A DNA stretch of 64,000 nt, taken from Deltaproteobacteria bacterium (GTDB taxonomy: Bacteria; Desulfobacterota; JAJRXV01). This document shows positions 6,144-56,627 of the stretch, one piece after another; the first letter of the stretch is position 1, and every line of letters starts with the position of its first letter. A program made the translations under genes and the position numbers. The notes under the pieces are model-generated. The model saw only the letters and a program-made list of their open reading frames with translations. It had not been told where the DNA came from and searched no databases. The stretch spans positions 6,696 through 70,695 of the forward strand of contig JAJRZU010000043.1 of assembly GCA_024275075.1 (NCBI GenBank), given 5' to 3'.

Positions 6144-8783
6144 TTATTCATCTTTTTGTGGTCTTCTGATATTGATTATCTTGGTATTCTTTAAGTGGGT
6201 GGACGTCTCGTATCTTGTTAACAACTCTATCTTGTTGACTATGCTTAACATCCTGTCCGCTTCTTCTGTTATGATCTTCAATGTCTGGTAAATATTTGAA
6301 TCTTCCTTCGTATCGTTCATCAGAAACTCAGAGTATGACATGATCGTCGTCAGCGGCTGCTTCAGTTCATGCGCGGACGAACCCGCCAATTCACTCTCTG
6401 CAATCAGCCGGTCTTTCTCTATCGCAGTCTCTTCGGATTTCTCAAGGCTCTTCGATGCCTTTGCAAGCTTGTCATCGAGATACCGGTTCATTACCGCCGC
6501 GCCAAGCTCACTACCGACCGTATCTAACAGCTTCAAGTCATACCCTGTCTTCTCCCTGGCGCTTGTACCGACAAGGAATATTGCGCCATACATCTTTTCC
6601 CGTACCTTTATAGGCACCAAGATGAACCGATCAATACCGCTGCTTGCGCAAAGGGTCTTTAATTCAAAAGAGATAGCGGCTCTTTTATCAACGTCATCGA
6701 CGGCGACAGAGGCCTTGCTTTTTATAAATTCATTGATTATCTCTTCGGCTCCCCACAACTCGATTATTTTATTGGAGAATCTTTCAAATAGATCATACAC
6801 GGCTCTTAGCTCAATTTTCTTCTTCTCTTCATCGAACAATAATACTATGCCGCCCTTTAGCTCTAAGAATTTGACAATCACTTTTAGCGAGCTGTCCAAA
6901 ACGCCCGTCAAGTCTGTGTCTTCATTAATTATTTCAGGGATAGCGCCCAGCAGTGCAAGCTCCTTGTTTTTCCTTAGCGCCTTGAGCTCCAATAGTTTTG
7001 TACCTGTCACGTCCCTTACTAAGGAGATAAAGCCGTAGACCTCATTTTTCGCGTTGCGCACCGGCTGGGTGAACAGGTCGTAATATTTCTCCTTACCAGA
7101 GCGGGCAATTATCCTCATCTCATGATTGTTCGGGGTCTGTTTTTCGAGCGTTACCGTTGCCGGACAGTTGTTGCAAACCGCACTATGCCCCCTGTATACG
7201 TTATAACACTTGTTCCCGATCAGCTCATTTGGCTGTTTATTAAACAGGTGCGCCTGGTACTTGTTGACCATCGCGACTTCAAAGTCACTGGTGATCAACG
7301 ATATCCCCATTTTCAGGCCGTCAAACACTGACTGAAGCTTGTTTCTCGTCCTGCTAAGCTCGTCGGCCAGTTCCTTCTGGGGAGTGATATCCGTACCTAT
7401 ACACTGGATGGAATCAGGGGCTGCGTCATCTTTGACAATGGTATTCGTTATTGAAAACACCTTTGGCTTCCCCCATTTATCATTTTGTATACAAAGCTCA
7501 TAAGCCGCGCTTGCACCCCTTAAAGCCCTCTTGTAATTCTCCTTGAATATCTCCTGATTCTCCGTACTTAGCAGGTCTAAGAAACTTGTCTGCGATATAT
7601 TATCCGTATTTAGTTCAAGCTCTTGTACAAAGCAGTTGTTATACGATTTTATCTTATAATCATCTCTTGTGACAATAAATATAATATTCGCGGCGTTTTC
7701 AAACAGCTCCTTGTACTTCTTCTCCGCCTCGCGCTTTTTGTCGCTGACCTCTTTTTCAAACTTTATCTGCATGTATTTTTTAAAGACTTTGTTTATCGTA
7801 AAGTTTGAGACAAAGAAGAGCAGAACCAACAGCGCGGCAATGATCACATTGTGCTCAAAATTCTCCGCGTTTACTTCTTGCACCACCTTTGCCGGTGTCG
7901 CGATGGCAAGCTACCAGAAGTTCTGCCAACCGACAATTACAGGGGTGTATGCGACGTAGAAGTCCTCGTTTTTATATCTGTATCCGCCGCCGCCGCTCTC
8001 CTGCGCTATCATGGACAACGATGTCTCGTAAAGCTTCCCGTAACTTTTTGAACGGAACGCATTCTCGCTTTTCATACCGACGAGCTCGGGCGACATGGAG
8101 TGTATGATGATCTCGCCGCGATTGTCAAGCGCCCACAGATAAGTGTTCGGGTGGAATTTCAGACTCTCGATAAAGAGCTGCTCGACCCGGGCAAGCTTTA
8201 TTGTAACAGCAACCGCTCCGGTGAAATCCTCAGGATGGAACGTCTTGCCAGGATCGCTTCTTGAATCATACATGGGCGCTGATACCGTTATGACCCGCTC
8301 ACCCATATCATCTACATGGACTTGCGATGTATACATGTTTTTCTTGTACTTGTTGGTATGGTCGCGGACAGATGTAAAGAAATCGCTTGACGCAAACGAT
8401 TTATTTATTTTTTCCGTGTATACTCTTGAAGGGAGCGCAAAGAGCAAGGTTCCGGATTTATTATAAATCCTTATACTTGATATCTCTTTTTGCTTCAGCC
8501 TGTAAAATGACAACAAATCCCTTATCTTCTCTAAATCAGAACCTTCATGTAAAGACAAGTTATTTGAAAAGATCTCAAGCTCACGCTTCTGGGTATTGAT
8601 AAATTCCTGAATGCCGTTTGATATCTGCTCGACTATCAGTATCTGGCTTTCATTGAACTGGTTGGCGTAAGAGAGTTTTTGAGATGCATAGTTGTGGTAT
8701 GCCACATAGGAGATAGCTATAAAGAACACTATGAAAAAAACATATATTAAGTAGTAAGTCTTCTTTTCTGTTGTCATTGGCAT
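6144..8783 (-). pseudogene. Sensor histidine kinase (Cache-TM-PAS-GAF-HisKA) interrupted by an in-frame TAG at 7911-7913 and lacking a HATPase_c domain
   Basis: ORFs 7911..8783 (TM plus periplasmic Cache-like sensor) and 6144..7886 (TM2, PAS, GAF, HisKA with SAHELKQPLTTI) are in the same frame, separated only by TAG. The read-through is ...GWQNFW*LAIATPAKVVQEV.... The protein ends about 70 aa after the H-box with no ATP-binding domain. Confidence 0.6.
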
Positions 8784-8892
8784 CCTAAGCAGGCTCGCCT
8801 GATTTTTTCTGCGGGTTAATTCCCTTCCCCACGCCGGTTGCTGTGAAGTTTAAGCCCGCCCCCCGTCAGCTTGCAGGGGAGGGGCGGTTCAT

Positions 8893-9600
8893 TTAGCTGT
8901 CAGATTGGATTTCAGTTAACGCTAAAAGGATGATCGTTTTATTATAACCCTTCACTAACCGCCCTTTTAAAAGAAGGTTCCTGACTCTTTTCTCCTTTGT
9001 AAGAATATCAAATCTTACATTTCTAATGTAACTCTCCTCTTCTATATTATTAAACAAGCGCTTATTCGCTTTATTATCGCTTGTCAATGTCAAGGAGTAA
9101 ATGCTCATCTCTAATAGATCCACCCTTAGATAACCGCTTATCACCTCCGCGCTCTGGTTCACCTCTAATATCTTACCGCTTTTCGGGTCGATTATTATTA
9201 CTGCGTCGTTGACTATCTCTAACAACCGGTAATAATTCTCCTCCGCCTCCCAAAGCTCCTGGAAATTCTTGTTGACCATTTTCTTTAACCTGAAGACATC
9301 GAAAGTGAGTAGAGCGATGATGCCAAGCGAGGAGAGCAGAAAGGCCAGTACCGGTATGTAGCCCCTGTGAAACCACGCCTTCCACGAGATATCCTCTTCG
9401 TTCCACCTCTTATACGCTTTTATGTTAGAGAGCGGGATGATATCGTTTGAAAAAAGCGCGAAATCATCTAATATGGTACCGGAAAAACTAAGCAGGGGGG
9501 AGTTGTTTGCTTTGAAAGAACCGCAATGAGCGTCATTTATACTGACAACAGTAATGAAGATAGCTGCCAAAATGAATATTTTTGCCGCTAATTTTACCAT
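8893..9600 (-). CDS. Membrane-anchored PAS-domain protein
   Basis: 235 aa with a signal peptide/TM, a second TM, and then a PAS fold (NDAVIIIDPKSGKILEVNQSAEVISGY). Confidence 0.45.
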   Translation of the reverse strand: MVKLAAKIFILAAIFITVVSINDAHCGSFKANNSPLLSFSGTILDDFALFSNDIIPLSNIKAYKRWNEEDISWKAWFHRGYIPVLAFLLSSLGIIALLTFDVFRLKKMVNKNFQELWEAEENYYRLLEIVNDAVIIIDPKSGKILEVNQSAEVISGYLRVDLLEMSIYSLTLTSDNKANKRLFNNIEEESYIRNVRFDILTKEKRVRNLLLKGRLVKGYNKTIILLALTEIQSDS

Positions 9601-13571: not shown

Positions 13572-15710
13572 ATGAGGTCATCAGCTAAATTCGTTTTATT
13601 ATTATTTCTTGCGTTATTCCTTTCATTTCCGGTCACAGGTTGTGATATCGGCGGCAGCAGCGGCAGCTCTACGGATAATGACGATGACGGCTTCCCCAAG
13701 GGTAAAGACTGTAATGACAATAATGCAGATATCCATCCAGACGCTATTGAGATACCGAATGACGGTATTGACCAGGACTGCGACGGTTCTGACTCCAGCA
13801 GCTACTATAAAGACGCGGACGGTGACGGGTATGGAAATGCAAACGATTCGAGCATAGCATCCACACAGCCTGACGGATATGTCGTTAACGATGATGACTG
13901 CAACGACGACGACGCGGATATCGACCCTTATGCCGCAGAGTTATGCGACGGTGTTGACCAGAACTGCAACGGGCAGATAGATGAGAGTTGCACTTCATAT
14001 TACTATGATTCTGATGGTGACGGGTACGGTGACCCAAACAACACGACTTCGGGGATGACCCAGCCTGACGGATATGTGACGAACAGCGAAGATTGCGATG
14101 ACTTAGACGCTACTGTCAATCCGGCGGCGGTGGAGTTATGCGACGGCATTGACCAGGATTGCGACGGTCAGGCAGACGAGGGTTGTATCAGTTATTACCT
14201 TGATGCGGACGGTGACGGCTACGGGGATTCGGGCGCCGCGGTCACCGCTGCTACTCCTCCCGCCGGTTATGTAAGCAACGGCGATGACTGCGACGATGCG
14301 AACGCGGATATCAACCCGGCGGCGGCGGAGACATGCGACGGGCTGGACAACAACTGCGACGGCCTGATTGATGACACGTGCCTTAAAGTACCAGAAGATT
14401 ATTTGACTATTCAGGCGGCGATCGACTCGGCGCCGACAAACAGCATTATATACGTTAACGACGGTACATATTATGAGAGCATAGATTTTAAAGGTAAATC
14501 GATCACTATTCAATCGATCAACGGCGCGGCTGGCGCTGCTATCGATGGAAGCGGTAGCGCTACGGTAGTCATCTTCGGCGCCGGCGAATCGTCAAGCACG
14601 GTGTTAGACGGGTTCACCATCACCAACGGCGACACAGCTTTTGCCGGCGGTATCTACATAAGCGGCAGCTCTCCCACTATCAAAAATTGTATCATCTCAA
14701 ACAACTCCGCAAACACGGGTAGCGGCGGCGGCGTCTATTCCATAAGCAATTCATCACCGACATTTGAGAACTGTACTATCTCAAACAATACAGCGGCCGC
14801 AAGCGGCGGCGGGATTTACTCTGATAATTCCACATTGACGCTGACTTCGAGCACTATCAGCAATAACACTGCCGATGAACATGGCGGTGGGATTTATATC
14901 GATTCCAAACCGCTTTCTATGACATCCACTACTATCAGCGATAATACCGCCAACTGGGGCGGCGGCGCGATTTTTGGCAACGATTCGACCATCACCGCGT
15001 CCTATTCTGATATCAGTAATAATGTCGCAAACTCTGCCGGCGGCGCTTTTTATACAAATAATTCAACTGTGACGATAGCATCTTCCTCTATAGCTGACAA
15101 CTCAGTTAACTCATCGGGTGGCGGCGGTTTCTGGATGAACGGTAGCGGCGGCGCTGTTTATAGTGACGCTTCCACGTGGACGATAACTAACAGCGTGATT
15201 GACGGTAACAGCGCGGTTGGCGGCGGTGGCGGAATAGTTTGTGACTGGAGCTCACAGCTAAACTTCACAAATTGCATTATAACCAATAATGCCGCGAACT
15301 ATGGCGGTTTCTTCTTCTTGTACTGGTACTCCTCATCCACGATAAAGAACTGTACGATAAGCAATAATTCGGCGACTACCGAAGGCGGCGCGATCTACTG
15401 TTCATATGAGAGCCTGACAATAGTCAACAGTATCCTGTGGGGCGATACAGCCGCTGCCAATAACGAAATATCGCCTTCGCCTAATGGCACCGTTGATATC
15501 ACATACTCTGACATCGACGGCGGATGGACTGCGACCGGTAACATAAACGCTGACCCGCTCTTTTCTGCCAGTGGCAACTACCGCCTTGGCGCCGGTTCTC
15601 CGTGCATCGATGCCGGTACGGCAACAGGCGCGCCGGCTGACGATATCGACGGTGATACAAGACCGCAGGGCAGCGGCATCGATATGGGGGCGGATGAGTA
15701 CGCGCAGTAA
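13572..15710 (+). CDS. Surface lipoprotein with four MopE-like Cys-rich metal-binding repeats and a right-handed parallel beta-helix domain
   Basis: Signal peptide plus lipobox (VTGCD). It has four repeats of DGxDQDCDG...DADGDGYG...CDDxDAxIxPxAxExCDGxDxNC, then many NxxANxGGGIY beta-helix turns and a C-terminal DIDGDTRPQGSGIDMGADE tail. Confidence 0.6.
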   Translation: MRSSAKFVLLLFLALFLSFPVTGCDIGGSSGSSTDNDDDGFPKGKDCNDNNADIHPDAIEIPNDGIDQDCDGSDSSSYYKDADGDGYGNANDSSIASTQPDGYVVNDDDCNDDDADIDPYAAELCDGVDQNCNGQIDESCTSYYYDSDGDGYGDPNNTTSGMTQPDGYVTNSEDCDDLDATVNPAAVELCDGIDQDCDGQADEGCISYYLDADGDGYGDSGAAVTAATPPAGYVSNGDDCDDANADINPAAAETCDGLDNNCDGLIDDTCLKVPEDYLTIQAAIDSAPTNSIIYVNDGTYYESIDFKGKSITIQSINGAAGAAIDGSGSATVVIFGAGESSSTVLDGFTITNGDTAFAGGIYISGSSPTIKNCIISNNSANTGSGGGVYSISNSSPTFENCTISNNTAAASGGGIYSDNSTLTLTSSTISNNTADEHGGGIYIDSKPLSMTSTTISDNTANWGGGAIFGNDSTITASYSDISNNVANSAGGAFYTNNSTVTIASSSIADNSVNSSGGGGFWMNGSGGAVYSDASTWTITNSVIDGNSAVGGGGGIVCDWSSQLNFTNCIITNNAANYGGFFFLYWYSSSTIKNCTISNNSATTEGGAIYCSYESLTIVNSILWGDTAAANNEISPSPNGTVDITYSDIDGGWTATGNINADPLFSASGNYRLGAGSPCIDAGTATGAPADDIDGDTRPQGSGIDMGADEYAQ

Positions 15711-27590: not shown

Positions 27591-27931
27591 ACCTGATAAA
27601 GGCAGGAATGCCGGCGCATTTCACTTATTCAGGGTCTTTTCCCGTTTTTAATGGATTTCATAATAACCAGCTTCTTAGAAAGTGGTTATGAAGAAGGGCT
27701 TTGCCTGAAACTGTGAATAATAAAACAATCTTGATAACAAAACCTGAATCAGCAGACTGACCGCCACCCAAGGAGAGAGATGCTCTGATTCAAACGTTTT
27801 TTTATTTTTCCGTTAACACCACTTTTTGTCTTGACAATAATGAGCCTGCTATGCTAAATTAGTCCCTGTCAGTTTTCAGATATAAAATGTTTAAATGTTT
27901 AGTAAACTTAGATAATCTATTTACTTAAATT

Positions 27932-29122
27932 TTGGAGGGGAGCATGTCTGAAGAAAAGAAGGATGGCCAGGTAGAACAGCTAAAAAAGGACTTTCAAGTT
28001 ATAAAGGATTTTTTGCCAAGGGTTCTTGATTTTGTCAAAGAGCATAAGCGGAAACTCATTATTCTCGGCGCTGTTTTAGTTGCATTAGGGGCGTTATTCA
28101 CGTATAAGATGATTCACTACACCTCAGAGCCTGAGTTTTGCAACCTGTTTTGTCATGAAATGACCCCTGAGGTTGAGTCATGGGAGAATTCATTCCATTC
28201 TCAAAGGGGTGTCGATTGTAAAGAGTGTCATTATGGCGAGGGTATTATGGGGGTTGTTAAAGCTAAGTATTACGCACAGTTTCAGCTTCTGCATCATATC
28301 ACCGGTTCATATTCAAACAACCCGCTTTAAAAGGCGAAGGAGCACGGATTTGAGTTAGCCGCACAGAACATCCACAAGAAGGGTAATAAGGTCTATTACA
28401 TCAAAGCGCATGGATATGCCGCCGAAGTCATCAATTTTAACTGTAAAAGGTGTCACCCGAACGTATTTGACATAGTTAGATCATCAGGTCGGTCGGTCAG
28501 GATGGCTCATAAGCAGCATCTTGAGAAGGGTTATGAATGTACTGACTGTCACATGAATATCGTTCATGGCACAGATCCTGAGGGCTTGAACCTGCCGACG
28601 ATGTGGACGTGTTTCAAGTGCCACGATGATGATAAGGCTCCAAGGGAAGAGTGTGCGTTATGCCACGTCGGGCAAAAGGAGATGTGGGAAGGTGTCGGCG
28701 CGAAAGACATAGATGATGAATCTGCGATGATGCTTGACGAGGTGGAGTGTTCTGACTGCCATTTAGCAGAGGATGACTATATCCCGCCGAGGGATGGCGC
28801 GGTATGCGCAGAATGTCATGATGATGAATCGTATGCGGATACTCTTAAGGAGTGGCAGACGGAAGTCAAGTCAAAAGGCTTCAAGTTAAGAAATATTTTA
28901 GATGAGCTTGCGCAAAGGATGAAGAATATTCAAGAATCTAAGAGAAAAGTGCGTGATTATGATACAGCAAAGGATCTTTATAACAAAGCTACCTACAATG
29001 CCGCGATGATTGAGCATGATGGCAGTAAAGGCGCACATAATTACGATTATGCTGTCTCGATATTAGATGCAAGCCTTAAAATGGCCAGGGACGCAAGGAA
29101 GATATTAACTGCTGGAAAGTAA
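27932..29122 (+). pseudogene. NapC/NirT/NrfH-family membrane-anchored multiheme cytochrome c (8 CxxCH) interrupted by an in-frame TAA at 28328-28330
   Basis: ORFs 27932..28330 and 28502..29122 share a frame. The 171 nt between them is open and encodes another CxxCH (CKRCH). The N-terminus has a TM anchor plus CNLFCHEM...W..SFHS...CKECHY, typical of NapC/NirT. Confidence 0.6.
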
Positions 29123-29168
29123 TAAGTTATTGAATAGTTATAAATCATTTAGGGAGGGGAATAAATAA

Positions 29169-30371
29169 ATGTTACCGCGGTTAAAAGTTTTAATAGGTTT
29201 AATGTTTGTGACGGTCTTTTTATGTGGTTTGACGCTATCTTCTGATGTATCGGCCGCAGATAAGGAAAACTGTCTTATGTGTCATAAATACGCGGGCAAT
29301 GGGCGTTTTGATGACAAAGGCCACCGGAAGATATTTTATGTAAACGAGGAGGTCTTTAGAACTACCGTTCATGGCTTCTTAAGGTGCAGGCAGTGCCACC
29401 AGGACATCAACAAGATTCCACACATAGGCGCCAAGAAAGTAAATTGTACTGTTGACTGCCATCTGGTGGAGCCTTCCACGAAAGACTGGGGCGAGGAGAA
29501 GAAGAATTTTTCTCACGGGAAAGTCGCGGCAATATTCAATGTAAGCGTTCACAACCCAGAAACCAGAAGCGATGGCAAGAAAAGGAAGAACCCGGAGGAT
29601 GTTCCAACCTGCAAGTATTGCCATACAAACCCGAAATATTATACCGGTGCAACCGCACAAGCTGTTGCGGCTGAGAAGAGAGAGACCGCGGTGGTTAACG
29701 ACATCTGCGGGCAGTGCCATGAAAACCTTGAATGGGCAAAAAGATTCTATGGGCACTTTACAAGGCGTGTCAACAAAAGACGAGGCGCCGCCCAGATGGT
29801 TGAGCTGTGCTTAGGCTGCCACTCAGACGTCGAGCTGATGAACAGAAACGGCCTGCCCCCTATCAACGCTTTTGAGGATTCATTCCACTTTAAGGCTATC
29901 AAATTTGGAGATACAAGGGTGCCTGACTGTTTAGGCTGCCATGCTCCGCTTGGGTTCCCTGCTCACAGCATCAAAACCCTTGAGGATCCTGACTCCGCCG
30001 TCTATGCGCAAAACAGGTTACAGAACACCTGCGCGTTAGAAGATTGTCACGGGGCTAACACTACTGAGGACTTTGCATCAGGCCGTGTTCATAACATCGA
30101 CGTTGATGTCAGGGTTGGTAAGGGCTTATTAGAAGGTATGGCTACTGACTATATCAAGGAGACGATTGAAAAAGGAAACAAATTTGATGAGATTATGACC
30201 GAAAAGACCAGGGCAGGCGCTGGTACTGAGCTTGAGGTACTGATATTGAATCTCGTCAGGTTTGTGTATCTTTTCTTAATTATAGCGCCTACTTTGATCG
30301 GAATGTTTTTGCATCAAATCCTTGACTTATATTCAACGTTAAGGGATAGAAAGAAGGGGGGGCACCATTAA
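29169..30371 (+). CDS. Multiheme cytochrome c (about 6 CxxCH plus 2 variant motifs) with C-terminal TM anchor
   Basis: 400 aa with a signal peptide. Motifs: CLMCH, CRQCH, CKYCH, CGQCH, CLGCH x2, plus CTVDCH and CALEDCH. Hydrophobic C-terminal helix. Confidence 0.7.
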   Translation: MLPRLKVLIGLMFVTVFLCGLTLSSDVSAADKENCLMCHKYAGNGRFDDKGHRKIFYVNEEVFRTTVHGFLRCRQCHQDINKIPHIGAKKVNCTVDCHLVEPSTKDWGEEKKNFSHGKVAAIFNVSVHNPETRSDGKKRKNPEDVPTCKYCHTNPKYYTGATAQAVAAEKRETAVVNDICGQCHENLEWAKRFYGHFTRRVNKRRGAAQMVELCLGCHSDVELMNRNGLPPINAFEDSFHFKAIKFGDTRVPDCLGCHAPLGFPAHSIKTLEDPDSAVYAQNRLQNTCALEDCHGANTTEDFASGRVHNIDVDVRVGKGLLEGMATDYIKETIEKGNKFDEIMTEKTRAGAGTELEVLILNLVRFVYLFLIIAPTLIGMFLHQILDLYSTLRDRKKGGHH

Positions 30372-31228
30372 TGCTTATTTTTGATGATAATGAATTAGAA
30401 CCGACAAAAGAACAAGAAAATGAAGAAGATAAAATGGTCTCTTCTGAAGAATATGCCAGTGAGCCGGCTGCCGAAGACACTACGCATGATGAAGTTATCG
30501 ATGATGACTACTCTGATTTGGGGATAGACGAGCACGAAGAGTATATTGTCAGGATGACGAAGAATGAGAGGGTTCAGCACCTGATCCTGTTTATATGCGT
30601 TACTACGCTGGTAATAACCGGATTCGCTCTAAAGATACCAATCGATTATATCACTAAATTAGGATGGATCGGCGCGACTTTATTTAAAATAAGAGGGTAC
30701 GTGCATAGATTATTTGGTACCACCTTACTATTAGCCACCGTTTATCACTTTATCAACCTGGCAGTCTCGAAGGATGGCAGGCGCTATTTTAAAGAGATGG
30801 TGCCAAGGATAAAGGATGTTACTGATGGTATCCACAATATCTCTTTTATGTTAGGTTTCGCGAAAGAGCCGCCGAGGATGGAGTGGTTTGACTACAAAGA
30901 GAAGATCGAGTATTGGGCGCTTCAGGCTGGTACAATGCTTATCGGCACTACCGGGCTGATTCTCTGGTCTAACAGGAGATGGCCTCAGTTAGTAGTAAAC
31001 CTGGCTTATCTGATTCACGGTATGGAGGCTATCTTAGCAACGGGCGCCATCATTATCTGGCACTTTTACTATATACATTTCAAACCAGGCCAGTTCCCGA
31101 TGAACAGGACATGGATAGATGGCAAGATGTCGCTGGCTCATCTGAAGCATGAGCACAGGGCTGTCTATGATAGATATATGGCTGAGAGAAGAAGAGATAT
31201 GCAGCGCAAAAAAGATACTGAAGAATAA
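30371..31228 (+). CDS. Di-heme cytochrome b (Ni/Fe-hydrogenase / FdnI-type b cytochrome family) with acidic N-terminal extension
   Basis: 285 aa. Start overlaps the upstream stop (TAATG). About 60 aa of D/E-rich N-terminus, then ERVQHLILF..TG and four TM helices with conserved His. Confidence 0.55.
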   Translation: MLIFDDNELEPTKEQENEEDKMVSSEEYASEPAAEDTTHDEVIDDDYSDLGIDEHEEYIVRMTKNERVQHLILFICVTTLVITGFALKIPIDYITKLGWIGATLFKIRGYVHRLFGTTLLLATVYHFINLAVSKDGRRYFKEMVPRIKDVTDGIHNISFMLGFAKEPPRMEWFDYKEKIEYWALQAGTMLIGTTGLILWSNRRWPQLVVNLAYLIHGMEAILATGAIIIWHFYYIHFKPGQFPMNRTWIDGKMSLAHLKHEHRAVYDRYMAERRRDMQRKKDTEE

Positions 31229-31267
31229 TATCATTTAGGTGAAAACATTGTTTAGGAGGGGGCTAAA

Positions 31268-32152
31268 TTGTCTGTAAAAAAAGAAAAAACATTCTTAGGT
31301 ATAGTAAAGGGGATAATTGGCAGGATATTCTGTGTCAGCATGATGATCCTGACGGCTTGGACGCTGATCGTCCTTCTTCGAGGATTATACTTCCCAAAAA
31401 AAGTTGCTACAGTTATTAAGGAGTCAGGGAAAAAGGGTAGCGTACTTCAGGAAAAAATGAAAGAGATCACAGAGTCAAAAGATATCAGAAATCATTTTCA
31501 TAATGTTGATAAGTCTATCTTTGTTGAGGCGAAAGACCCGCCGCTTTGTTTGACATGCCATGGTAACCTGCCGCACACAAAAGCTCTGGAAATGAGAGCA
31601 TTGTTAAACATGCACACATATTTTATTGCCTGCGAGGTTTGTCATATCAGGAAAGAGGCTGATGATGACATATACTTTGCGTGGTATGATTTTGATACAA
31701 GGGAAGAAACTTATACTTTAGAGGGGCCTCCCGGAGATTATAACGCAAAGATAGTACCGGTAAGAAGGTTACCTGGAAAGAAAAAGAGAAGGTTAGACAC
31801 ACCTCTTAACGAGGATTACGCAAGGGACTTTATCGAAAGCGGTTATAAGTGGACATTAGAAGAGAGAGCTAAAGCTAAAGCTCTTATACATGAGGAGCAC
31901 ACTAAGCAACCGGTTCTTTGCAATGAGTGTCATACAAGCAAGAACGGGTATCTGCCTTTTGAAGACCTGCATTTATCTGAAAAAAGAGCGGGGCAACTTA
32001 GAGGCACGGCAGCCGCGGGAATGGTTGAAAGGTACATCAAATTCTACCTGCCGACTATGTTTGATCCGGCGCTCGTCAAGAAGAGAAAGCCATCTGAAAC
32101 CAAAAGTGACGCTTTGATGATTAGCGATGAAGAAATCTTTAATGTCAAATAA
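31268..32152 (+). CDS. Membrane-anchored c-type cytochrome (3 CxxCH)
   Basis: TTG start 6 nt after AGGAGGGGG. N-terminal TM helix, then CLTCH, CEVCH and CNECH. Confidence 0.6.
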   Translation: MSVKKEKTFLGIVKGIIGRIFCVSMMILTAWTLIVLLRGLYFPKKVATVIKESGKKGSVLQEKMKEITESKDIRNHFHNVDKSIFVEAKDPPLCLTCHGNLPHTKALEMRALLNMHTYFIACEVCHIRKEADDDIYFAWYDFDTREETYTLEGPPGDYNAKIVPVRRLPGKKKRRLDTPLNEDYARDFIESGYKWTLEERAKAKALIHEEHTKQPVLCNECHTSKNGYLPFEDLHLSEKRAGQLRGTAAAGMVERYIKFYLPTMFDPALVKKRKPSETKSDALMISDEEIFNVK

Positions 32153-32240
32153 ACGAATTAAGTATCTGAAATGAATTAATAAGGGGAGTTTTTTTAAACT
32201 CCCCTTATTTATAAATCCATATAAATTACAAATAACTCTC

Positions 32241-33200
32241 ATGGTTCTGACTAACAAAAAGCTCTGCCTTTTAATTCTAAATTTATTGATTTTGTCGTGT
32301 TTGTTAATTCTTGCCAATAAATGTCATGCATTAAACGTTGTCTCTACAAAGCTTTTGTTTGAGTTGACGGGCAGTCCAAAAGGAAAATTTGATCAACCTA
32401 CTGCTGTTACATTAGGTAAAGGTGGACGTATCTATGTCATGGATGGCGTCAACAACAGGGTTGTCTATTTTAATAATAATGGTAAATTCTTAAAAGAATT
32501 TGGTGGGGAGGGGTTTGCCGAAGGGCGTTTCTTCTTCCCGCTTGGTATCAAAACGGACGCTGAGGGGAATGTATATGTAGCTGACTCGAAAAACGGCAGG
32601 ATCCAGGTATTTACATATAGTGGTGAATATATAAGAAGTTTCAACTTAGAGAAGATCCAAAAGGGGTTCCAGGCAGACCCTACCGATATCGCCATAAATG
32701 ATAAAATCAATAAGTGCTACATCGTAGATAACGATAATCACAGGATATTAGTTTACAACAAGCAAGGTGAGTACCTGACGAGATTTGGTAGTATGGGGTT
32801 CATAGAGGGTGACTATTTCCGCTACCCGTATAAGGTCGATCTTGACAGCGAAGGCAATGTTTACGTTTTAGAGGTGATTAACACAAGGGTTCAGGTTTTT
32901 GATAAGGATTTGAACTATAAGTACTCGATAGCTGAGTGGGGGCTGGATAAAGGGCAGTTTTTCAGACCCCAGGGGCTTGTGATCGACAATGAGGACAGAG
33001 TCTTCATCGCTGATAACTATACCGGTGTCATACAGGTCTTATCCAAATCAAGTAAGTTTATTGCGGTATTAGGTGATGAAAACGGTGAAATATTAAGGCT
33101 TGATACGCCATGCGGTATGTATATCGATGAAGATAACCGGTTATTTGTTACTCAGATGTTAAAGAACGTTGTATCAGTATATCAACTACAATGGCAATAA
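32241..33200 (+). CDS. NHL-repeat beta-propeller protein (secreted)
   Basis: Signal peptide. Six repeats of the G(R/N)IYV(M/A)D..N.R(V/I)..F type, characteristic of NHL propellers. Confidence 0.7.
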   Translation: MVLTNKKLCLLILNLLILSCLLILANKCHALNVVSTKLLFELTGSPKGKFDQPTAVTLGKGGRIYVMDGVNNRVVYFNNNGKFLKEFGGEGFAEGRFFFPLGIKTDAEGNVYVADSKNGRIQVFTYSGEYIRSFNLEKIQKGFQADPTDIAINDKINKCYIVDNDNHRILVYNKQGEYLTRFGSMGFIEGDYFRYPYKVDLDSEGNVYVLEVINTRVQVFDKDLNYKYSIAEWGLDKGQFFRPQGLVIDNEDRVFIADNYTGVIQVLSKSSKFIAVLGDENGEILRLDTPCGMYIDEDNRLFVTQMLKNVVSVYQLQWQ

Positions 33201-33201
33201 T

Positions 33202-36200
33202 ATGAAAAAGTTTTTTTTTATATTACTCTTTATTTTATTCTTTTGCTCATTTATATGCCTTAAAAGCTCTTTTGCTTACGATAAAGAGAAGGCAAAGATG
33301 TTAAGGGATGAGACAAAAGAGTGTGCTATATGTCATTATGAGTTTATCCCCCAGATATGGGTAGGTAACGGTACCGAACTGGTTGAATATGTTCCCGGCA
33401 GGTTTGTCGGGGACGAACGCGTTTGCTACGGATGTCATAATGGCGGCGTCGCTGATTCCAGGTGGCGTGCATGGTCGATGCAAAGGCACCCGCTAAAAAA
33501 ACCTTCTGACAAAATCAAGATTACAAAGGAATTCCCCTTAAATGACAAGGGTGAGATGTATTGCGGGACATGTCACACCGCTCACGGCGTGGATACGGAC
33601 GCATCCGTTGAGATGGAGCGAACGATATTCCTAAGATACTCAAACAACAATTCTGAGATGTGCATGAGCTGCCACACAAACCAGGCCAAGGGGAAGGAGG
33701 GCGGCAGCCACCCTGTAAATGTATCAACGATCAAATTACCTGAGAAGCTGTCTCATATTGGTGGCTTTACCGGGGATGAACCGAATAAAGTGATCTGTCA
33801 AAGCTGTCACAGCCCGCACGGGACAAGTGAGAAAAAACTGCTGGTCGCCCCGATAAAAAATGCCGAACTATGCGTTCTGTGCCATTATGATAAGGACGCG
33901 AAAACGAGAAAAGAAGCGGCTCGCAAAGGCACGCACCCGGTAAACATCGCGTCAGACACGGTGAAGATATCAGAGAAGTTGAGAAAATTAGGTAGTCGAA
34001 CCGGTACGAAGGGCAGGATAAATTGTCTTTCATGCCACACCGTTCATGATGGCATCAAGGGAAACAAACTTGTTTTAAAAAGAAACTCTGACTCTTCGTT
34101 CTGCCTTGAGTGCCATGAGAAGCAGGAATCGGTATTAGACTCAAAGCATGACCTGCGGGTTACCGCACCGAATGAGCGAAACAAGCTAAAGCAATCACCA
34201 AAGCGCTCCGGGCCTTGCAGCGCCTGCCATATCCCTCATAAAGCCGCCGCGGCGAAGATATGGGCAAAGGAGATCGACACCCGCGGCGAAGCGATAGAGG
34301 AGCTTTGTAAAACCTGTCATGAAAAAGGGGCATGTGCCGAAAAGAAGCAGGTCGGCTTAAATTCGCACCCGGTGGGGATACCGCTTGCCAGGGTAGGCGG
34401 GAGCAGATCGGCTCTGCCGACGTTTGATGAAAATGGCGTAAAAACTATAGTCGATACGAATGTCACCTGCTCCACATGCCATAACGTTCATCAGTGGGAC
34501 CCCCGCAATAAAGTGGTAAAGGGTGACAAGGACATTGACGGTAACTATACAAACAGTTTCTTACGGATAAGGAACCTGTTTGGACTGAGGCTTTGTACTG
34601 ATTGCCATAAGGACCAGGAGTTTATTTTCAGGACTGAACATGACCTGACAGTAACCGCTCCTTTAGAGAAGAACATCCTCGGGCAGACTCCCGCTGAGTC
34701 AGGGCCGTGCGGTGTGTGTCATACCGTCCACAACGCGTTAAGCAAGAACAAGCTCTGGGCGCGACAGTTAGGTGACGCCGATGACGCTGTCTCCATGTTC
34801 TGCTTCAGCTGCCATGAGGAGGGCAGGGTCGCACAAAAGAAGCTTACCGGTGAACATTCCCACCCTGTGATGGCCGACATAAAGCGGGCGGATGGATCGA
34901 CAACGCTCCCTTTGTATATGATAAACAGTAAAAAGGACCCTGAAAAGGGTAAGGTTACCTGTGCAAGCTGCCATAATCTTCACCAATGGGACCCCGAGAT
35001 CAAGGGGCAGGGACCCGGGGAGAATACCGAAGGCGATGTTACAAACAGTTTCTTACGGATAAGGAACGATGCGGATTCCGCTCTTTGTAATGATTGCCAT
35101 GAGGGGAAATATCTGATAGAGGACACCGACCACGACATGGCGGTGACCGCTCCGGACGAGAAGAACCTGCTCGGGCAGACAGTAGCCGAAACAGGGGTAT
35201 GCGGCGCCTGTCACACTATTCATAACGGTGTCTCCTCATTCAAGCTCTGGGTAAAAAAACTCGGCGGCACCGAGCTTGATGATTGTATATCAAGGCTCTG
35301 CTTTAGCTGTCATGACAGGCAGCGTGTCGCACAAAAGAAGCTGGTCGGGGAGAATTCCCACCCAGTGAACGCCGATATAAAGAAAGCGGACGGCTCGACA
35401 GACCTGCCATTATTCAACAAGGAGGGGCGCATCCCGAAAGAAGGCGAGGAGGGCAGGGTCTTTTGTTCCACCTGCCACAACCTGCACCAATGGGACCCGA
35501 CGAAGAAGGAGAAAGGACCAGGGGAGCCTGTGGAGGGTGATATCTCAAACAGCTTCCTGCGCCTGCCGAATGACGCCGGCTCTACGCTGTGCAAAAACTG
35601 CCATGACGGTAAAGACCTCGTTGAGGGGACTGACCATGACATGGCGGTAACGGCGCCCGGGGAGAAAAACATTGTTGGGGAGACCGTGGAGAAGACCGGC
35701 GCGTGCGGCGCGTGTCATATCGTCCATAACGGTGTCTCAACGTATAAACTGTGGGGTAAGGAGTTAGGCGGCGACGAGGATACAGATGGTATTTCGCGGC
35801 TATGCTTCAGCTGTCACGAGGAAGGCAGGGTGGCGCACAAGAAGCAGGTCGGTAAGAATTCCCACCCCGTTGGCGTCGATATCTCGACCGTAGGCGGTGA
35901 GACAGACCTGCCGCTCTTTGATGAAAAAGGTAAAAAAATTGACGGTAATGGCAATGGAAAGGGCAAAGTGTTCTGCTCCACCCGCCACAACCTGCACCAG
36001 TGGGATCCGCTCATAGATGATTATGGCTCCAATGAAAACCTTGAGGGCAACCGCACCAACAGCTTTTTGCGCCTGCCGAATGACGCCGGCTCCACGCTGT
36101 GCAAAAACTGTCACAAGGGTAAGGAATATGTGGAGGGGACAGAGCATGACCTTTCGGTAACCGCGCCGGCCGCAGAGAACGCTATCGGCGAGACAGTCGA

Positions 36201-37203
36201 TGTCGCAGGCGTTTGCAGCGCATGTCACCTTGTCCATAATGGATACGCGTCCGCGTTTTTATGGGCGCGAGTACCGGGCGTGGGGGAGGACAAAGTATCA
36301 AGGTTGTGCACAAGCTGCCACTTAGAGGGACGTGTCGCGCAGAAAAAGACATTAAATGAGAACTCGCATCCGGTTAACGTGCTGATCAGCAGGGCGGACG
36401 GCAGCACCGATTTCCCGCTTTATAATGATATGGGGAAGAAAGACCCTGAAGGCAGGGTGTTTTGCAGCTCTTGTCACAATGTTCATCAATGGAATCCGTC
36501 TAAAGTGGATTATGGGCCAAGGATCAACATTGAAGGAACGCCCCAGACAAGCTTCCTGCGCGCGCCCGGCCTTGACCTGTGTATTAATTGCCACGAAGGG
36601 AAAGATTATATTATCGATACAGAGCATGACCTGAGCGTCACCGCACCCGAAGAGAAGAATCTCCTTGGCAGGACTGTCGCCGAGGACGGCGTTTGCAGCG
36701 CGTGTCACATTATCCATAATGGTGTCAACAAACCGCTCCTGTGGGCGCGTCTTTTCGGGCCGCCGTTCATCAGGGACTGGCAGACGAAATTCGGGGCGGA
36801 AGAGGACCCTGTGGTTCAGGCTTGCACAAGCTGCCATTCTGAAAAAAACATCGCCGAGAAGAAACAGCCGATAGTCGGGCTGCACCCGCGCGGTATTTTT
36901 GTCGGGATAAAACCACTGCCGTTCATCTCCAAGGGAGAGCCGATTCCACCACTATATGATGTGCACGGCGCGAGGATAAAAACAGGGAACTTAGTCTGCC
37001 CTACATGCCACAATCTGCACCAGTGGAGCGGTAGAAAGAAGAAGAAGGGGCCGGGCAAGAACATCGAGGGCAATGCGAACAACAGTTTTTTAAGGAGTGG
37101 AGTCTCTTTCGGCTTATGTCCTGACTGCCACTCATTTGACGGATTGTTCCGGTTCAAGTATTATCATGTACCAAGGATGAGAAACAGAAAATCGAAGAAA
37201 TAG
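33202..37203 (+). CDS. Giant repetitive multiheme cytochrome c (about 31 CxxCH motifs)
   Basis: The ORF frame opens at 33169, but ATG 33202 (MKKFFFILLF signal peptide) follows the NHL stop. The C-terminal two thirds consists of about 5.5 tandem units of roughly 165 aa, each with 4 CxxCH, with 80-90 % nucleotide identity between units. Confidence 0.8.
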   Translation: MKKFFFILLFILFFCSFICLKSSFAYDKEKAKMLRDETKECAICHYEFIPQIWVGNGTELVEYVPGRFVGDERVCYGCHNGGVADSRWRAWSMQRHPLKKPSDKIKITKEFPLNDKGEMYCGTCHTAHGVDTDASVEMERTIFLRYSNNNSEMCMSCHTNQAKGKEGGSHPVNVSTIKLPEKLSHIGGFTGDEPNKVICQSCHSPHGTSEKKLLVAPIKNAELCVLCHYDKDAKTRKEAARKGTHPVNIASDTVKISEKLRKLGSRTGTKGRINCLSCHTVHDGIKGNKLVLKRNSDSSFCLECHEKQESVLDSKHDLRVTAPNERNKLKQSPKRSGPCSACHIPHKAAAAKIWAKEIDTRGEAIEELCKTCHEKGACAEKKQVGLNSHPVGIPLARVGGSRSALPTFDENGVKTIVDTNVTCSTCHNVHQWDPRNKVVKGDKDIDGNYTNSFLRIRNLFGLRLCTDCHKDQEFIFRTEHDLTVTAPLEKNILGQTPAESGPCGVCHTVHNALSKNKLWARQLGDADDAVSMFCFSCHEEGRVAQKKLTGEHSHPVMADIKRADGSTTLPLYMINSKKDPEKGKVTCASCHNLHQWDPEIKGQGPGENTEGDVTNSFLRIRNDADSALCNDCHEGKYLIEDTDHDMAVTAPDEKNLLGQTVAETGVCGACHTIHNGVSSFKLWVKKLGGTELDDCISRLCFSCHDRQRVAQKKLVGENSHPVNADIKKADGSTDLPLFNKEGRIPKEGEEGRVFCSTCHNLHQWDPTKKEKGPGEPVEGDISNSFLRLPNDAGSTLCKNCHDGKDLVEGTDHDMAVTAPGEKNIVGETVEKTGACGACHIVHNGVSTYKLWGKELGGDEDTDGISRLCFSCHEEGRVAHKKQVGKNSHPVGVDISTVGGETDLPLFDEKGKKIDGNGNGKGKVFCSTRHNLHQWDPLIDDYGSNENLEGNRTNSFLRLPNDAGSTLCKNCHKGKEYVEGTEHDLSVTAPAAENAIGETVDVAGVCSACHLVHNGYASAFLWARVPGVGEDKVSRLCTSCHLEGRVAQKKTLNENSHPVNVLISRADGSTDFPLYNDMGKKDPEGRVFCSSCHNVHQWNPSKVDYGPRINIEGTPQTSFLRAPGLDLCINCHEGKDYIIDTEHDLSVTAPEEKNLLGRTVAEDGVCSACHIIHNGVNKPLLWARLFGPPFIRDWQTKFGAEEDPVVQACTSCHSEKNIAEKKQPIVGLHPRGIFVGIKPLPFISKGEPIPPLYDVHGARIKTGNLVCPTCHNLHQWSGRKKKKGPGKNIEGNANNSFLRSGVSFGLCPDCHSFDGLFRFKYYHVPRMRNRKSKK
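34549..37140 (+). repeat. Intragenic tandem repeat array (about 500-nt period) inside the giant cytochrome gene
   Basis: Unit landmarks (N)SFLR(I/L)(R/P)N at about 34549, 35041, 35548, 36058, 36550 and 37085. For example, 35545-35610 versus 36055-36120 are nearly identical. Confidence 0.6.
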
Positions 37204-37228: not shown

Positions 37229-37882
37229 ATGGCAAAACCTGCGGGAGTCCAGATCAAAAGATGGTTTATGATACTTATTATATTGCTTATAACAGTCAAC
37301 ATTATCTCCGTGTTATCTTTCTTCGTCGTTTATTCGAAGATAAATGAGATAAAGGCGGCATACCAACCGATCGTCAAATCAAGCGCGGCTATCAACTCGA
37401 AGATATTGTCAGCCCAGATAGACCTGTATAAATACTTGTCAGAGTATCAGGATGACTTAGGGTCGGTATACATTAAGACAAAAGGCCTGACAAATGAGTT
37501 GAAAAACATCAATTCTATCGTTAAAGAGGCAAATATCAAGGCGTTGGACGTTAAGTTATTAGATGGCGTATTAGAGTCTACCGAGAAGTTTGAGAGCGCT
37601 ATAAAACGGTTGGACAGTATTGATGAGCAAGGCGTGGTAGACTGGGACAGAGTGAATGAATTAAGAGATTATGCCGCTACGATGGGGACGGAGGCATCGA
37701 TTAAAATAGAAAGCGTAAACAACGAGATCAACCTCTTGATAACTAACCATAACATCAGGGTCACGCTTATCGCCCTGATAGTCGTCTGTATCCTGTTCGC
37801 GTTCCTTATCCTGAGCTTTGTCATCATGATCCAGCTCCACTACTGGTGGAAGAAATTTGAAGACCTGATATTAGAACTATAA
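37229..37882 (+). CDS. Membrane protein with periplasmic helical/coiled-coil domain between two TM helices (sensor-like, no output domain)
   Basis: 217 aa with TM helices at both ends and a helical middle. No recognisable catalytic motifs. Confidence 0.35.
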   Translation: MAKPAGVQIKRWFMILIILLITVNIISVLSFFVVYSKINEIKAAYQPIVKSSAAINSKILSAQIDLYKYLSEYQDDLGSVYIKTKGLTNELKNINSIVKEANIKALDVKLLDGVLESTEKFESAIKRLDSIDEQGVVDWDRVNELRDYAATMGTEASIKIESVNNEINLLITNHNIRVTLIALIVVCILFAFLILSFVIMIQLHYWWKKFEDLILEL

Positions 37883-37894
37883 AATCATTATTTG

Positions 37895-37918
37895 CCCCCC
37901 TCTCATCAAGGGAGGGGG
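37895..37918. terminator. Bidirectional stem-loop between convergent genes (37229..37882 + and coaX -)
   Basis: CCCCCTC-tcatcaagg-GAGGGGG: 7-bp GC-rich stem with A/T-rich flanks. Confidence 0.4.
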
Positions 37919-56177: not shown

Positions 56178-56627
56178 TTAACACAGGCTTAAGCTCTTAT
56201 TCGTAAAATACTGCTTATGTGACCAGACATACCGCAGTATCAAGAATAAGATCAAGCAGAAAATAAGGTTGATATTAGCGTAATCCACTAACGCGTCTGA
56301 GCTTTTCAGTATTTTTACCAGTGCATCCTTATCAACGAAAGCGAGCGTAATAAGAATATCCGCGATAGCGAATATATTATACCCTATCAACAAGGAGCGC
56401 GCAAATTCCTGTTTCTTATACGTCCCGATACTAAGGTACAAAAGGACAGAGGTCTCCGCCGCGATCACCAGCTTTGACAGCACCGGTGGCAGCGCCACGC
56501 TAAAGAGTATATAGACCTCGGATGCCCCTAATACGCTCATGAAAGCCATGAAGCCGTAGAACACCGCTATGAACACCATCGAAAATGGCAGGCGCCCGGT
56601 CTCATTCCCTGTCTCTTGTTCCTTCAT
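56178..56627 (-). CDS. Integral membrane protein, unknown function
   Basis: 149 aa with 4 predicted TM helices. Translationally coupled to the upstream DsbA-like gene (4-nt overlap). Confidence 0.3.
   Translation of the reverse strand: MKEQETGNETGRLPFSMVFIAVFYGFMAFMSVLGASEVYILFSVALPPVLSKLVIAAETSVLLYLSIGTYKKQEFARSLLIGYNIFAIADILITLAFVDKDALVKILKSSDALVDYANINLIFCLILFLILRYVWSHKQYFTNKSLSLC

Follow-up and report, generated by a model that had tools for sequence, protein, structure and literature searches.

We analyzed a 64,000-nucleotide (nt) stretch of DNA from a Deltaproteobacteria bacterium (contig JAJRZU010000043.1 of assembly GCA_024275075.1, positions 6,696 to 70,695), which is called the window here. 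Seven co-directional genes on the plus strand, labeled g1 to g7, were located between 27.9 and 37.9 kb of the window, and four of them encoded multiheme cytochromes c. We considered it somewhat probable that these genes specify a two-part, quinone-linked respiratory conduit, in which g2, g3, and g4 (with g1 added) would form a membrane complex, and g5, g6, and g7 would supply a propeller and a heme wire. In what follows, L-numbers denote the loci of relatives and P-numbers denote homologous proteins. The features of the cluster are as follows (TM, transmembrane; aa, amino acids):

27831 to 27860, plus strand: candidate sigma-70-like promoter within the 340 nt that precede g1 (TTGACA-18-TAAATT, TG-extended).
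27944 to 29122, plus strand: g1, frame of an octaheme cytochrome of the NapC/NirT superfamily (PF03264), interrupted by a TAA codon.
29169 to 30371, plus strand: g2, CbcA-like octaheme cytochrome c that has a signal peptide and is anchored by a TM helix at its C terminus.
30371 to 31228, plus strand: g3, diheme cytochrome b of the FdnI/HydC type with four TM helices (PF01292).
31268 to 32152, plus strand: g4, triheme cytochrome c (three CxxCH motifs) with an N-terminal TM anchor.
32178 to 32209, plus strand: candidate internal terminator or attenuator between g4 and g5, a GC-rich hairpin with a U-rich tract (z -3.7).
32241 to 33200, plus strand: g5, secreted six-bladed NHL beta-propeller (PF01436).
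33202 to 37203, plus strand: g6, secreted 1333-aa cytochrome c with 32 heme sites (Paired_CXXCH).
35974 to 35988, plus strand: degraded heme-attachment site CSTRH within the sixth unit of g6 (TGC to CGC), aligned with CSTCH in L002.
37229 to 37882, plus strand: g7, 217-aa protein with a TM helix at both ends and no family match.
37896 to 37918, plus strand: terminator-like hairpin closing the cluster (9 pairs, 7 of them G-C, -19 kcal/mol, z -3.1, weak T-tail).

All 47 CxxCH motifs of the island were found in the coding frames of g1, g2, g4, and g6, and the remaining 54.7 kb of the window contained only 2 such motifs in six frames; thus, the heme-motif density of the island was far beyond chance. 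A preliminary description of the same DNA had listed co-directional tandem genes, and these were found at the coordinates it gave, with Pfam matches backing its calls for g1, g3, g5, and g6. Its accounts of g2 (about eight heme motifs and a C-terminal anchor), g3 (a diheme cytochrome b with a D/E-rich N terminus of about 60 aa), g4 (an anchored cytochrome with three hemes), and g5 (a secreted NHL propeller) agreed with the results presented below, and all of the cytochromes c carried a signal peptide or an anchor, as that description had proposed to check.

The evidence for the first part of the conduit came from g2, g3, and g4. The g3 product matched PF01292 (E 1e-11, 45.5 bits versus a cut-off of 30.1), its hydropathy profile had four peaks, corresponding to four TM helices, and it matched Escherichia coli FdnI (PDB 1kqf_C) with E 6e-6 as a single sequence and E 8e-8 as a profile. 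Specifically, His70, His112, His216, and His231 of g3, which were invariant in 24 sequences, fell on the four heme-ligand positions of FdnI. A diheme cytochrome b of the FdnI/HydC type is recognized by a PF01292 match, four TM helices, and His heme ligands in TM1 (one), TM2 (one), and TM4 (two), and g3 had all of these features. The g2 product contained six CxxCH motifs plus CTVDCH (CX3CH) and CALEDCH (CX4CH); in an alignment with 52 homologs (53 sequences), all eight heme motifs, eight further His residues, and His382, which is located in the C-terminal TM helix, were invariant or nearly so. In the case of g4, three CxxCH motifs and His76, His78, His103, His116, and His208 were conserved, and no Pfam family matched above its cut-off, the cytochrome matches all being below threshold.

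The g4 gene was always located downstream of g3, and in Desulfobulbaceae the two were joined in a single protein of about 525 aa. When the protein library (50%-clustered representatives) was searched with g4, 339 matches were obtained at E<=1e-3 and 141 at E<=1e-10, and these included several g3+g4 fusions and four g2+g3+g4 fusions of 861 to 908 aa. The four long proteins (P0297, P0302, P0335, and P0386) carried an octaheme cytochrome c, a diheme cytochrome b, and a triheme cytochrome c in one chain, in the g2-g3-g4 order. The implied 1+4+1 TM topology of the fusion proteins was self-consistent, would place both heme-c domains in the periplasm, and recurred in independent lineages. These natural fusions and their consistent topology are strong evidence that g2, g3, and g4 would form one inner-membrane complex.

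We also examined whether g3 might be the gamma subunit of a formate dehydrogenase or Ni/Fe-hydrogenase. This assignment was ruled out because the scores of g3 against the corresponding equivalogs were low (35.9 versus 115.85 bits for TIGR01583 and 23.5 versus 121.5 bits for TIGR02125), and because the window contained no formate dehydrogenase or hydrogenase catalytic or FeS genes. The cytoplasmic N-terminal extension of g3 comprised 60 aa with 24 D/E and 2 K/R residues. Extensions of this type (window 30371-30550; P0002-P0008) were confined to the closest clade, where the sequence was unconserved and always acidic, and in P0002 and P0008 they were also His-rich (HGHGSHGHGSHSHG; SHKAHSHSSHEEAHSHH). 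A metal-binding role or a role as a regulatory tail is possible for this acidic extension.

The g3 cytochrome b belonged to a large, specific family, and a scan for its motif in one genome per species identified 71 loci. In about 40 of the 71, which came from Desulfobacterales, Desulfobulbales, and Nitrospirota, a BLASTP synteny table showed a cassette with the order g2-like, g3, g4-like, often a pentaheme g4-like gene, NHL gene, and giant cytochrome gene with 18 to 24 hemes; Gallionellaceae cassettes were found separately. Two or three paralogous copies of the cassette were often located side by side. The carriers included the cultured Desulfosediminicola flagellatus IMCC35005 and Desulforhopalus sp. 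IMCC35007, and none of the 71 loci was from Geobacter or Desulfuromonas. In one Gallionellaceae genome, the g2-g3-g4 triplet was present twice, together with an NHL gene and a gene for a 24-heme g6 homolog, with 30-41% identity. The exact gene order of the island was shared by three close relatives (L002, L001/L007, and L080); the closest relatives included a "Thermodesulfobacteriota bacterium" and the "Deltaproteobacteria bacterium" Dive96_bin3.187. L002 and L080 had the same right flank as the window (genes for pantothenate kinase, BirA, NadC, and ValRS), and the window and L002 showed about 70% nucleotide collinearity. The co-localization of homologs in about 40 of the 71 loci, the fusion proteins, and a second arrangement in which a NapC-like gene adjoined the cassette all supported the idea, put forward in the preliminary description, that the genes make up one electron-transfer module. 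The outcome that this description had named as weakening its idea, a lack of any co-localization of the homologs in other genomes, was clearly contradicted.

Extra genes followed the cassette in relatives such as L010 (15331-20651, Desulfosediminicola) and L048 (16082-20012, a Desulfobacteraceae metagenome-assembled genome). The extra genes encoded a further multiheme cytochrome, tetraheme Paired_CXXCH proteins that at about 230-250 aa were as large as OmcE, a 704-aa protein of no known family, and a further NHL protein. This set resembled the published pattern of OmcE clusters, and the window lacked these genes.

The second part of the proposed conduit was dominated by the giant cytochrome encoded by g6 (Paired_CXXCH, E 1e-61). 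Its most likely start was the ATG at 33202, one base after the g5 stop codon, and this start yielded a 1333-aa protein equal in length to those of the relatives. The preliminary description had given 1344 aa and about 31 hemes; 31 CxxCH motifs were indeed present, but the length was shorter, and the degraded CSTRH motif brought the number of heme sites to 32. The g6 homologs of L002 and L080 had 32 CxxCH motifs each. The protein began with a signal of the signal peptidase I (SPase I) type (SFA/YD). In tandem, six units were clearly recognizable, each about 165 aa long, 39-56% identical to the others, and equipped with four CxxCH motifs and four further invariant His residues; with two more divergent units at the N terminus, g6 comprised eight units and 32 sites. 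Since each unit has four CxxCH motifs and four further invariant His residues, all of the hemes of g6 are predicted to be bis-His ligated. The g6 family was large: at least 1,193 proteins were found at E<=1e-10 in Deltaproteobacteria, Gallionellaceae, Sulfuricella, and several candidate phyla. Among the best 120 homologs, heme counts clustered at 20, 24, 28, 32-35, and 48, with about 42 aa per heme.

Profiles of the g6 unit matched PDB entry 7tfs_A (E 2.6e-7 and 4.3e-8) and entry 9yuq_N (E 4e-8). The first is a 232-aa protein, labeled merely "Cytochrome c" in the database, which we take to be the Geobacter OmcE filament subunit, and the second is a 218-aa protein that was solved in a 16-chain assembly. 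The matches were collinear through the series HDL, CxxCHxxHN, LW, CxSCH, HPV, CxxCHxxH, FLR, and CxxCH. After its last heme motif, g6 ended in the tail FDGLFRFKYYH. The His of this tail was at about the same spacing as the HDL His behind internal units, and it was present in 104 of 115 short-tailed homologs. At the interface of the OmcE filament, one heme has to be ligated by a His that the next subunit provides (bioRxiv 2025.10.22.684050). Because the spacing of the tail His matched that of the HDL His, and because of this requirement at the OmcE interface, we infer that consecutive units of the chain are linked through the HDL His, that the KYYH tail caps the last heme, and that g6 is a finite wire. 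For comparison, MtrA carries 10 hemes over about 10 nm (PMC5566968); scaled to 32 hemes, this gives an estimate of about 30 nm, and the wire would be roughly 25-30 nm long.

A beta-helix partner was hinted at by several loci. P0180 (Poribacteria, 1921 aa) had beta-helix/NosD domains fused to a g6-like cytochrome, and NosD/right-handed beta-helix proteins recurred beside the cassette in L006 (11689-14265) and L081 (8915-9940). These observations hint that a beta-helix/NosD protein is a further accessory partner of the cassette.

The g5 product was a clear NHL protein (PF01436, E 7e-26), and it matched the NHL domains of TRIM71 and Thin in the PDB with E 1e-44 to 1e-46. Its homologs had SPase I-type signal peptides without a conserved lipobox Cys; although Cys20 of g5 fits the lipobox pattern, it was not conserved among the homologs, and lipoprotein status was ruled out. 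The conserved polar residues included Asp68, Asp115, Asn118, Arg120, DNDNH at 163-167, Arg216, Arg242, and others, among which there was only one conserved His and no conserved Cys. NHL propellers are also encoded beside multiheme cytochromes in Desulfovibrio ferrophilus (PMC5815863, PMC8322314), and propellers accompany such cytochromes in OmcE clusters (bioRxiv 2025.10.22.684050) and in the Tenderia Uet system (bioRxiv 2022.05.06.490989). The g7 product consisted of a helical middle region of about 130 aa between two terminal TM helices and had no Pfam or NCBIfam match. Only the close clade had a conserved counterpart behind g6, with 62% identity in L002 and 59% identity in L080, at an equal position.

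The intergenic gaps from g1 to g7 were, in order, 46, -1, 39, 88, 1, and 25 nt; the negative value reflected the TAATG at 30369-30373, in which the g2 stop codon and the g3 start codon shared one base. GGAGG-type ribosome-binding sites were found upstream of g1 to g4 (where they were strong) and g7, and no site of this type was seen upstream of g5 or g6. In L002 and L001, a hairpin of another sequence was located at the corresponding place between g4 and g5, with a clear U-run in L001. Because of this conserved hairpin and the differing ribosome-binding sites, the island looks like two expression units, g1 to g4 and g5 to g7. The overlap at the start of the cytochrome b gene had been described correctly in the earlier work. 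Its claim of gaps of about 40-90 nt with AGGAGG-type sites suited the gaps of 46, 39, and 88 nt but not that of 1 nt, nor g5 and g6 with their missing sites. In the case of its TTGACA promoter at 27831, the sequence matched 10 of 12 positions of a sigma-70-like promoter, but such matches were not enriched in the region (22 found versus 18.5 expected in shuffles), so it is retained as a candidate only. The gene at 37229, which had been thought to bracket the island, proved to be a member of it, since g7 was conserved in L002 and L080 and was followed by the closing hairpin. The internal hairpin, the modular build of g6 with its likeness to nanowire subunits, and the stop codon in g1 had been passed over.

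The g1 frame matched PF03264 (NapC/NirT) with E 4e-18 and 66.1 bits versus a cut-off of 24.1. It had a hydrophobic segment at aa 35-58, corresponding to an N-terminal membrane anchor, an NrfA-like helical C terminus, and eight heme sites, namely, seven CxxCH motifs and CNLFCH (CX3CH) as the first site. The family, the anchor, and the eight sites of the octaheme NapC-type quinol dehydrogenase that had been claimed were all present; however, codon 129 of the frame (28328-28330) was a TAA stop, which split g1 into two open reading frames (ORFs) as assembled. The aligned codon was GAA (Glu) in the closest relative, L002, and TCC in L001, and all seven close homologs were intact, with lengths of 388-423 aa. 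The source assembly annotated only the 206-aa C-terminal ORF, which lacked a signal peptide. We read the TAA as a nonsense mutation of very recent origin or as an error in the consensus. Assignment of g1 as an NrfH, NapC, or TorC equivalog was ruled out by scores far under the curated NCBIfam cut-offs (53.8 versus 134.2 for TIGR03153, 23.1 versus 310.6 for TIGR02161, and 32.4 versus 478.2 for TIGR02162). The octaheme NapC-like family was rare, with 11 proteins found. A NapC-like gene adjoined the cassette again in L081, at another position, and g1 was absent from most cassettes, which indicated that it was dispensable for the core. In L001 (6115-7159) and L002 (2193-3111), a DksA/TraR zinc-finger gene and a gene for a multiheme cytochrome of 162-166 aa were located just upstream of the NapC-like gene. 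The window contained neither of these genes (tblastn gave weak matches inside g6 only), and a methyltransferase gene was found in that place.

The broken frame of g1 raised the idea that the window copy is decaying or partly inactive, or that both of its defects are assembly errors, so that the cassette would not work here as described. The part of g1 downstream of the nonsense codon has no signal peptide and would be neither exported nor supplied with heme, and the Cys-to-Arg change costs g6 one heme site. In addition, a sensor histidine kinase elsewhere in the window (6144-9600, minus strand) was split over three ORFs (PAS at 8893-9600, dCache at 7911-8783, and PAS-GAF-HisKA at 6144-7886), with no HATPase_c domain after them. 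Such a pattern suggests a frameshift, a truncation, or assembly errors, and it bears on how far the g1 stop codon can be trusted. However, all of the other motifs and reading frames and the collinearity with L002 were intact, each defect was a single base change of the kind that is typical of metagenome consensus or strain-variant effects, and the one gene that was interrupted is missing from most cassettes. We regarded this explanation as doubtful, though it was the most serious of the alternatives.

Taken together, the data suggested the following scheme for the preferred two-part conduit. The first part would be a menaquinone:cytochrome c oxidoreductase, in which g3 is flanked by the anchored periplasmic cytochromes g2 and g4. 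In FdnI, the quinone site is located near the cytoplasmic heme. The FdnI-like g3 would have a quinone site that faces the cytoplasm in the same way, so that electron flow from the periplasm to menaquinone would build membrane potential, and the reverse flow would consume it; that is, uptake would be electrogenic and quinol oxidation dissipative. The g1 protein, broken in this assembly, would add a NapC-type quinol site facing the periplasm. The second part (g5, g6, and g7) would be encoded behind the internal terminator-like hairpin. Here, g6 would be an all-bis-His chain of 32 hemes in eight fused units, each homologous to an OmcE-type tetraheme subunit; the N-terminal HDL His of a unit would probably ligate the last heme of the preceding unit, and the C-terminal KYYH would cap the last one, giving a finite wire that is long enough to span the periplasm. 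The propeller encoded by g5 would act as a non-redox partner in assembly or docking. Complex formation with g6, the geometry of the wire, its localization, and the direction of flow are presumed in this scheme. In our judgment, the quinone pool and the outer envelope would exchange electrons reversibly, and uptake from outside to menaquinone appeared to be the more likely direction in this Thermodesulfobacteriota lineage. A precedent for a reversible b/c pair is Geobacter CbcBA (Cbc5, GSU0593-0594), which combines a HydC/FdnI-type diheme cytochrome b with a multiheme cytochrome c that has a His-bearing C-terminal helix (bioRxiv 2021.04.15.440034) and has been proposed to run in reverse in the sulfate-reducing partners of anaerobic methane-oxidizing archaea (ANME) (PMC10553843).

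Several points weighed against this scheme. No outer-membrane component was found in the window or in the loci of the closest relatives, L002 and L080, and with a nonsense codon in g1 and a lost heme site in g6, the copy studied here may not be fully functional. The g6 protein had no lipobox and no known sorting signal. An AlphaFold2 model of aa 470-801 of g6, built from a 23-row alignment, was poor (predicted local distance difference test score [pLDDT] 55, predicted template modeling score [pTM] 0.44), and a Foldseek search of this two-unit model against the PDB gave no meaningful match, so the argument for a nanowire-like fold is that of the sequence profiles. Multiheme proteins that are modeled without their hemes and from shallow alignments give poor models. 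The likeness to CbcBA was one of architecture, and even there differences were apparent: CbcA has seven hemes versus the eight motifs of g2, and CbcB has three b-heme ligands and receives the fourth from CbcA, whereas g3 holds all four, which means that the role of the His in the TM helix of g2 must differ from the role proposed for its CbcA counterpart. Pfam scans of the flanking genes of the window revealed no sigma-54 activator or BccR-type regulator, and -12/-24 promoters were not searched. The likeness to the NHL-type cytochrome island of D. ferrophilus was one of published gene content, and in that species deletion of the cytochromes of an NHL-type island left Fe(III) oxide reduction unimpaired (PMC9769857).

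The wider window also offered no route across the outer membrane. Pfam scans detected no porin family, lipoprotein cytochrome, secretion system, or cytochrome c maturation genes, and the flanks contained housekeeping genes; the absence of a porin-like family from the island and the window agreed with the preliminary description, though the ORFs of no known family were not checked for a beta-barrel fold, which limits this negative. Since the window contains no porin, lipoprotein cytochrome, or secretion system, the "extracellular" step of electron transfer is one that we infer. Thus, the claim of an extracellular electron transfer conduit stood in part: the genes behaved as a module, but the NapC frame was disrupted, and nothing in the window crosses the outer membrane.

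If the conduit ran outward, as the preliminary description proposed, quinol would be oxidized by g1 and/or by g2-g3-g4, and the electrons would pass via a surface-located g6 to Fe(III) or Mn(IV) minerals, electrodes, or partner cells. The architecture resembles that of the Geobacter quinol oxidases ImcH, CbcL, and CbcBA (bioRxiv 2021.04.15.440034), the units of g6 are homologous to the subunits of extracellular nanowires, the large D. ferrophilus cytochrome DFE_0465 was detected in the extracellular proteome (PMC8322314), and relatives add small tetraheme proteins, the 704-aa protein of no known family, and extra NHL genes beside the cassette. Nevertheless, we thought outward transfer unlikely. 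With the FdnI-type geometry, quinol oxidation would cost membrane potential, and the carriers include Fe(II)-oxidizing Gallionellaceae. As noted above, no porin, lipoprotein cytochrome, or secretion genes were present in the window, L002, or L080, and the D. ferrophilus island mutants keep Fe(III) oxide reduction (PMC9769857).

It was less likely still that g6 functions only in the periplasm, where it would store electrons as a quinone-connected capacitor or deliver them as a bus to periplasmic enzymes, and none would cross the outer membrane. The window encodes no outer-membrane part, 32 bis-His hemes at about 42 aa per heme would suit storage, the C-terminal self-cap makes the chain finite, and the giant periplasmic cytochromes of PCC3 have been proposed to act as capacitors or to span the periplasm (PMC9900912). 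However, storage alone leaves the partnership with NHL proteins and the homology to filament subunits unexplained, and the heme number varies by whole units (5 to 12), which is more like length tuning, although a capacity reading is still possible. We considered it very improbable that g5 is catalytic and converts a soluble substrate within a periplasmic redox enzyme, which the cytochromes would only feed or drain: its conserved polar residues could make a site on one face, and some NHL or six-bladed propellers are enzymes (g5 had weak Pfam matches to SGL and arylesterase), but it lacked a metal-ligand constellation, the structures closest to it are TRIM71/Thin-type interaction domains, the 43 c-type heme sites besides the eight of g1 would be excessive for one small enzyme, and propellers accompany cytochromes where catalysis is not suspected (bioRxiv 2025.10.22.684050).

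We also considered a broader form of the two-part conduit, which we advance tentatively as a possibility. In this form, g6-type proteins would be widespread single-chain nanowires that arose by head-to-tail fusion of OmcE-like units, with the KYYH cap and with lengths set in four-heme steps (20-48), and the His ligand between filament subunits would have become an intramolecular link. Together with g2-g3-g4 and the NHL protein, they would form a porin-independent, quinone-coupled, trans-periplasmic conduit common to sulfate reducers, Nitrospirota, and Fe(II) oxidizers, mainly for energy-conserving uptake.

Some other features of the window were recorded. The GC content was about 42% over 30001-34000 (g3 to g5 and the start of g6) versus about 50% for the housekeeping genes on either side and 53% for the repeats of g6, and the flanks around the low-GC stretch recurred in L002 and L080. 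A codon or amino-acid bias of the cytochromes or an older acquisition may lie behind the low value. An Rfam scan of the window detected no RNA family. A 712-aa protein encoded at 13572-15710 (plus strand) had four MopE-type putative Cu-binding motifs, a right-handed beta-helix, and a Chlamydia-PMP repeat and may be a secreted metal-binding or adhesin-like protein. A 347-aa ORF at 56624-57667 (minus strand) had no Pfam match.

The question of how the quinone pool is linked to external electron sources or sinks in sulfate reducers and other sediment bacteria without Mtr or Pcc systems arises in direct interspecies electron transfer with methane-oxidizing archaea, in iron corrosion, and in mineral oxidation. 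The cassette provides a genomic marker with fixed parts that crosses phyla, where cytochromes are poorly conserved, and the fusion proteins define a three-subunit complex that is suited to expression and assay. If g6 is a covalent nanowire of set length, it would be a monodisperse object for long-range heme-to-heme conduction and a building block for bioelectronics. The cultured carriers of the cassette make experiments possible.

The individual parts of the cluster were compared with known systems. Like E. coli FdnI (1kqf chain C), g3 is a PF01292 protein with four TM helices and aligned heme-ligand His residues, and in both cases a partner contributes one extra TM helix (FdnH there and g2 here); g3 differs in its multiheme cytochrome c partners and its acidic N-terminal extension. 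The g1 frame shares an N-terminal anchor and a NapC/NirT tetraheme domain with the quinol dehydrogenases NapC, NirT, NrfH, and CymA and with Geobacter ImcH, but it has eight heme sites with a first site of the CX3CH type, an NrfA-like helical tail, a tiny family, and, in this copy, a stop codon. As in Geobacter CbcBA, the diheme b gene and the gene for a multiheme cytochrome c with a conserved His in its C-terminal TM helix are adjacent, the b gene directly following, and the pair belongs to a larger cytochrome cluster at the quinone end of a route to or from the envelope. In contrast to CbcBA, the cassette has an obligatory third subunit, the triheme g4, which is often fused.

The units of g6 resembled OmcE-type nanowires (7tfs; 9yuq) in the order of the tetraheme motifs, in the eight His residues per four hemes, and in having propeller neighbors. 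The nanowire subunits are polymerizing proteins of about 230 aa, whereas eight units are fused in the one 1333-aa chain of g6, which is apparently capped at its C terminus. OmcE clusters contain propellers and a large beta-barrel; the island has a propeller, and no barrel or glycosylation genes were found in the window. The g5 propeller, moreover, is not a lipoprotein.

Large secreted multiheme cytochromes beside six-bladed NHL propellers, without porin-cytochrome genes, are also encoded in the island of the sulfate reducer D. ferrophilus IS5 (DFE_0448-0465), whose authors proposed a stabilizing role of the propeller in the cytochrome complex (PMC5815863, PMC8322314). The genes listed for that island include neither a cytochrome b nor a NapC type, and it also has a seven-bladed propeller, an OmpA-family protein, and a peptidyl-prolyl isomerase, and its propeller DFE_0463 is a predicted lipoprotein, unlike g5.

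The PCC3 systems of the Fe(II) oxidizers Sideroxydans and Leptothrix include giant repeat-built cytochromes with 21-27 and 10-85 hemes that are proposed to span the periplasm (PMC5566968, PMC9900912). They resemble the present cluster in having giant cytochromes with few amino acids per heme and an inner-membrane b-heme protein, and g6 homologs are encoded by Gallionellaceae and Sulfuricella. The differences are that PCC3 includes a porin and an inner-membrane protein with five TM helices and two WX3HX13H motifs (PMC5566968) and lacks an NHL propeller, g2, and g4; the Gallionellaceae locus with a g6 homolog showed the g2-g3-g4-NHL cassette and not the PCC3 layout. Membership in PCC3 was ruled out by the absence of a porin from the window and by the four-TM FdnI type of g3. 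An Mtr/Pcc conduit was likewise ruled out, as there was no porin family, no MtrA/DmsE-family decaheme cytochrome, and no surface lipoprotein cytochrome; g6 scored 72.6 against TIGR03508, versus a cut-off of 192.2.

The preliminary description had called the combination undescribed. Clusters of NHL and multiheme cytochrome genes and a b/c pair of the CbcBA type have already been described, but no description of the fixed combination as a unit, or of the fused and capped build of g6, was found in a literature coverage that was incomplete. Thus, the parts each resemble known things, namely, CbcBA and FdnI, NapC, OmcE, and the NHL companions of multiheme cytochromes, and their fixed combination is widespread.

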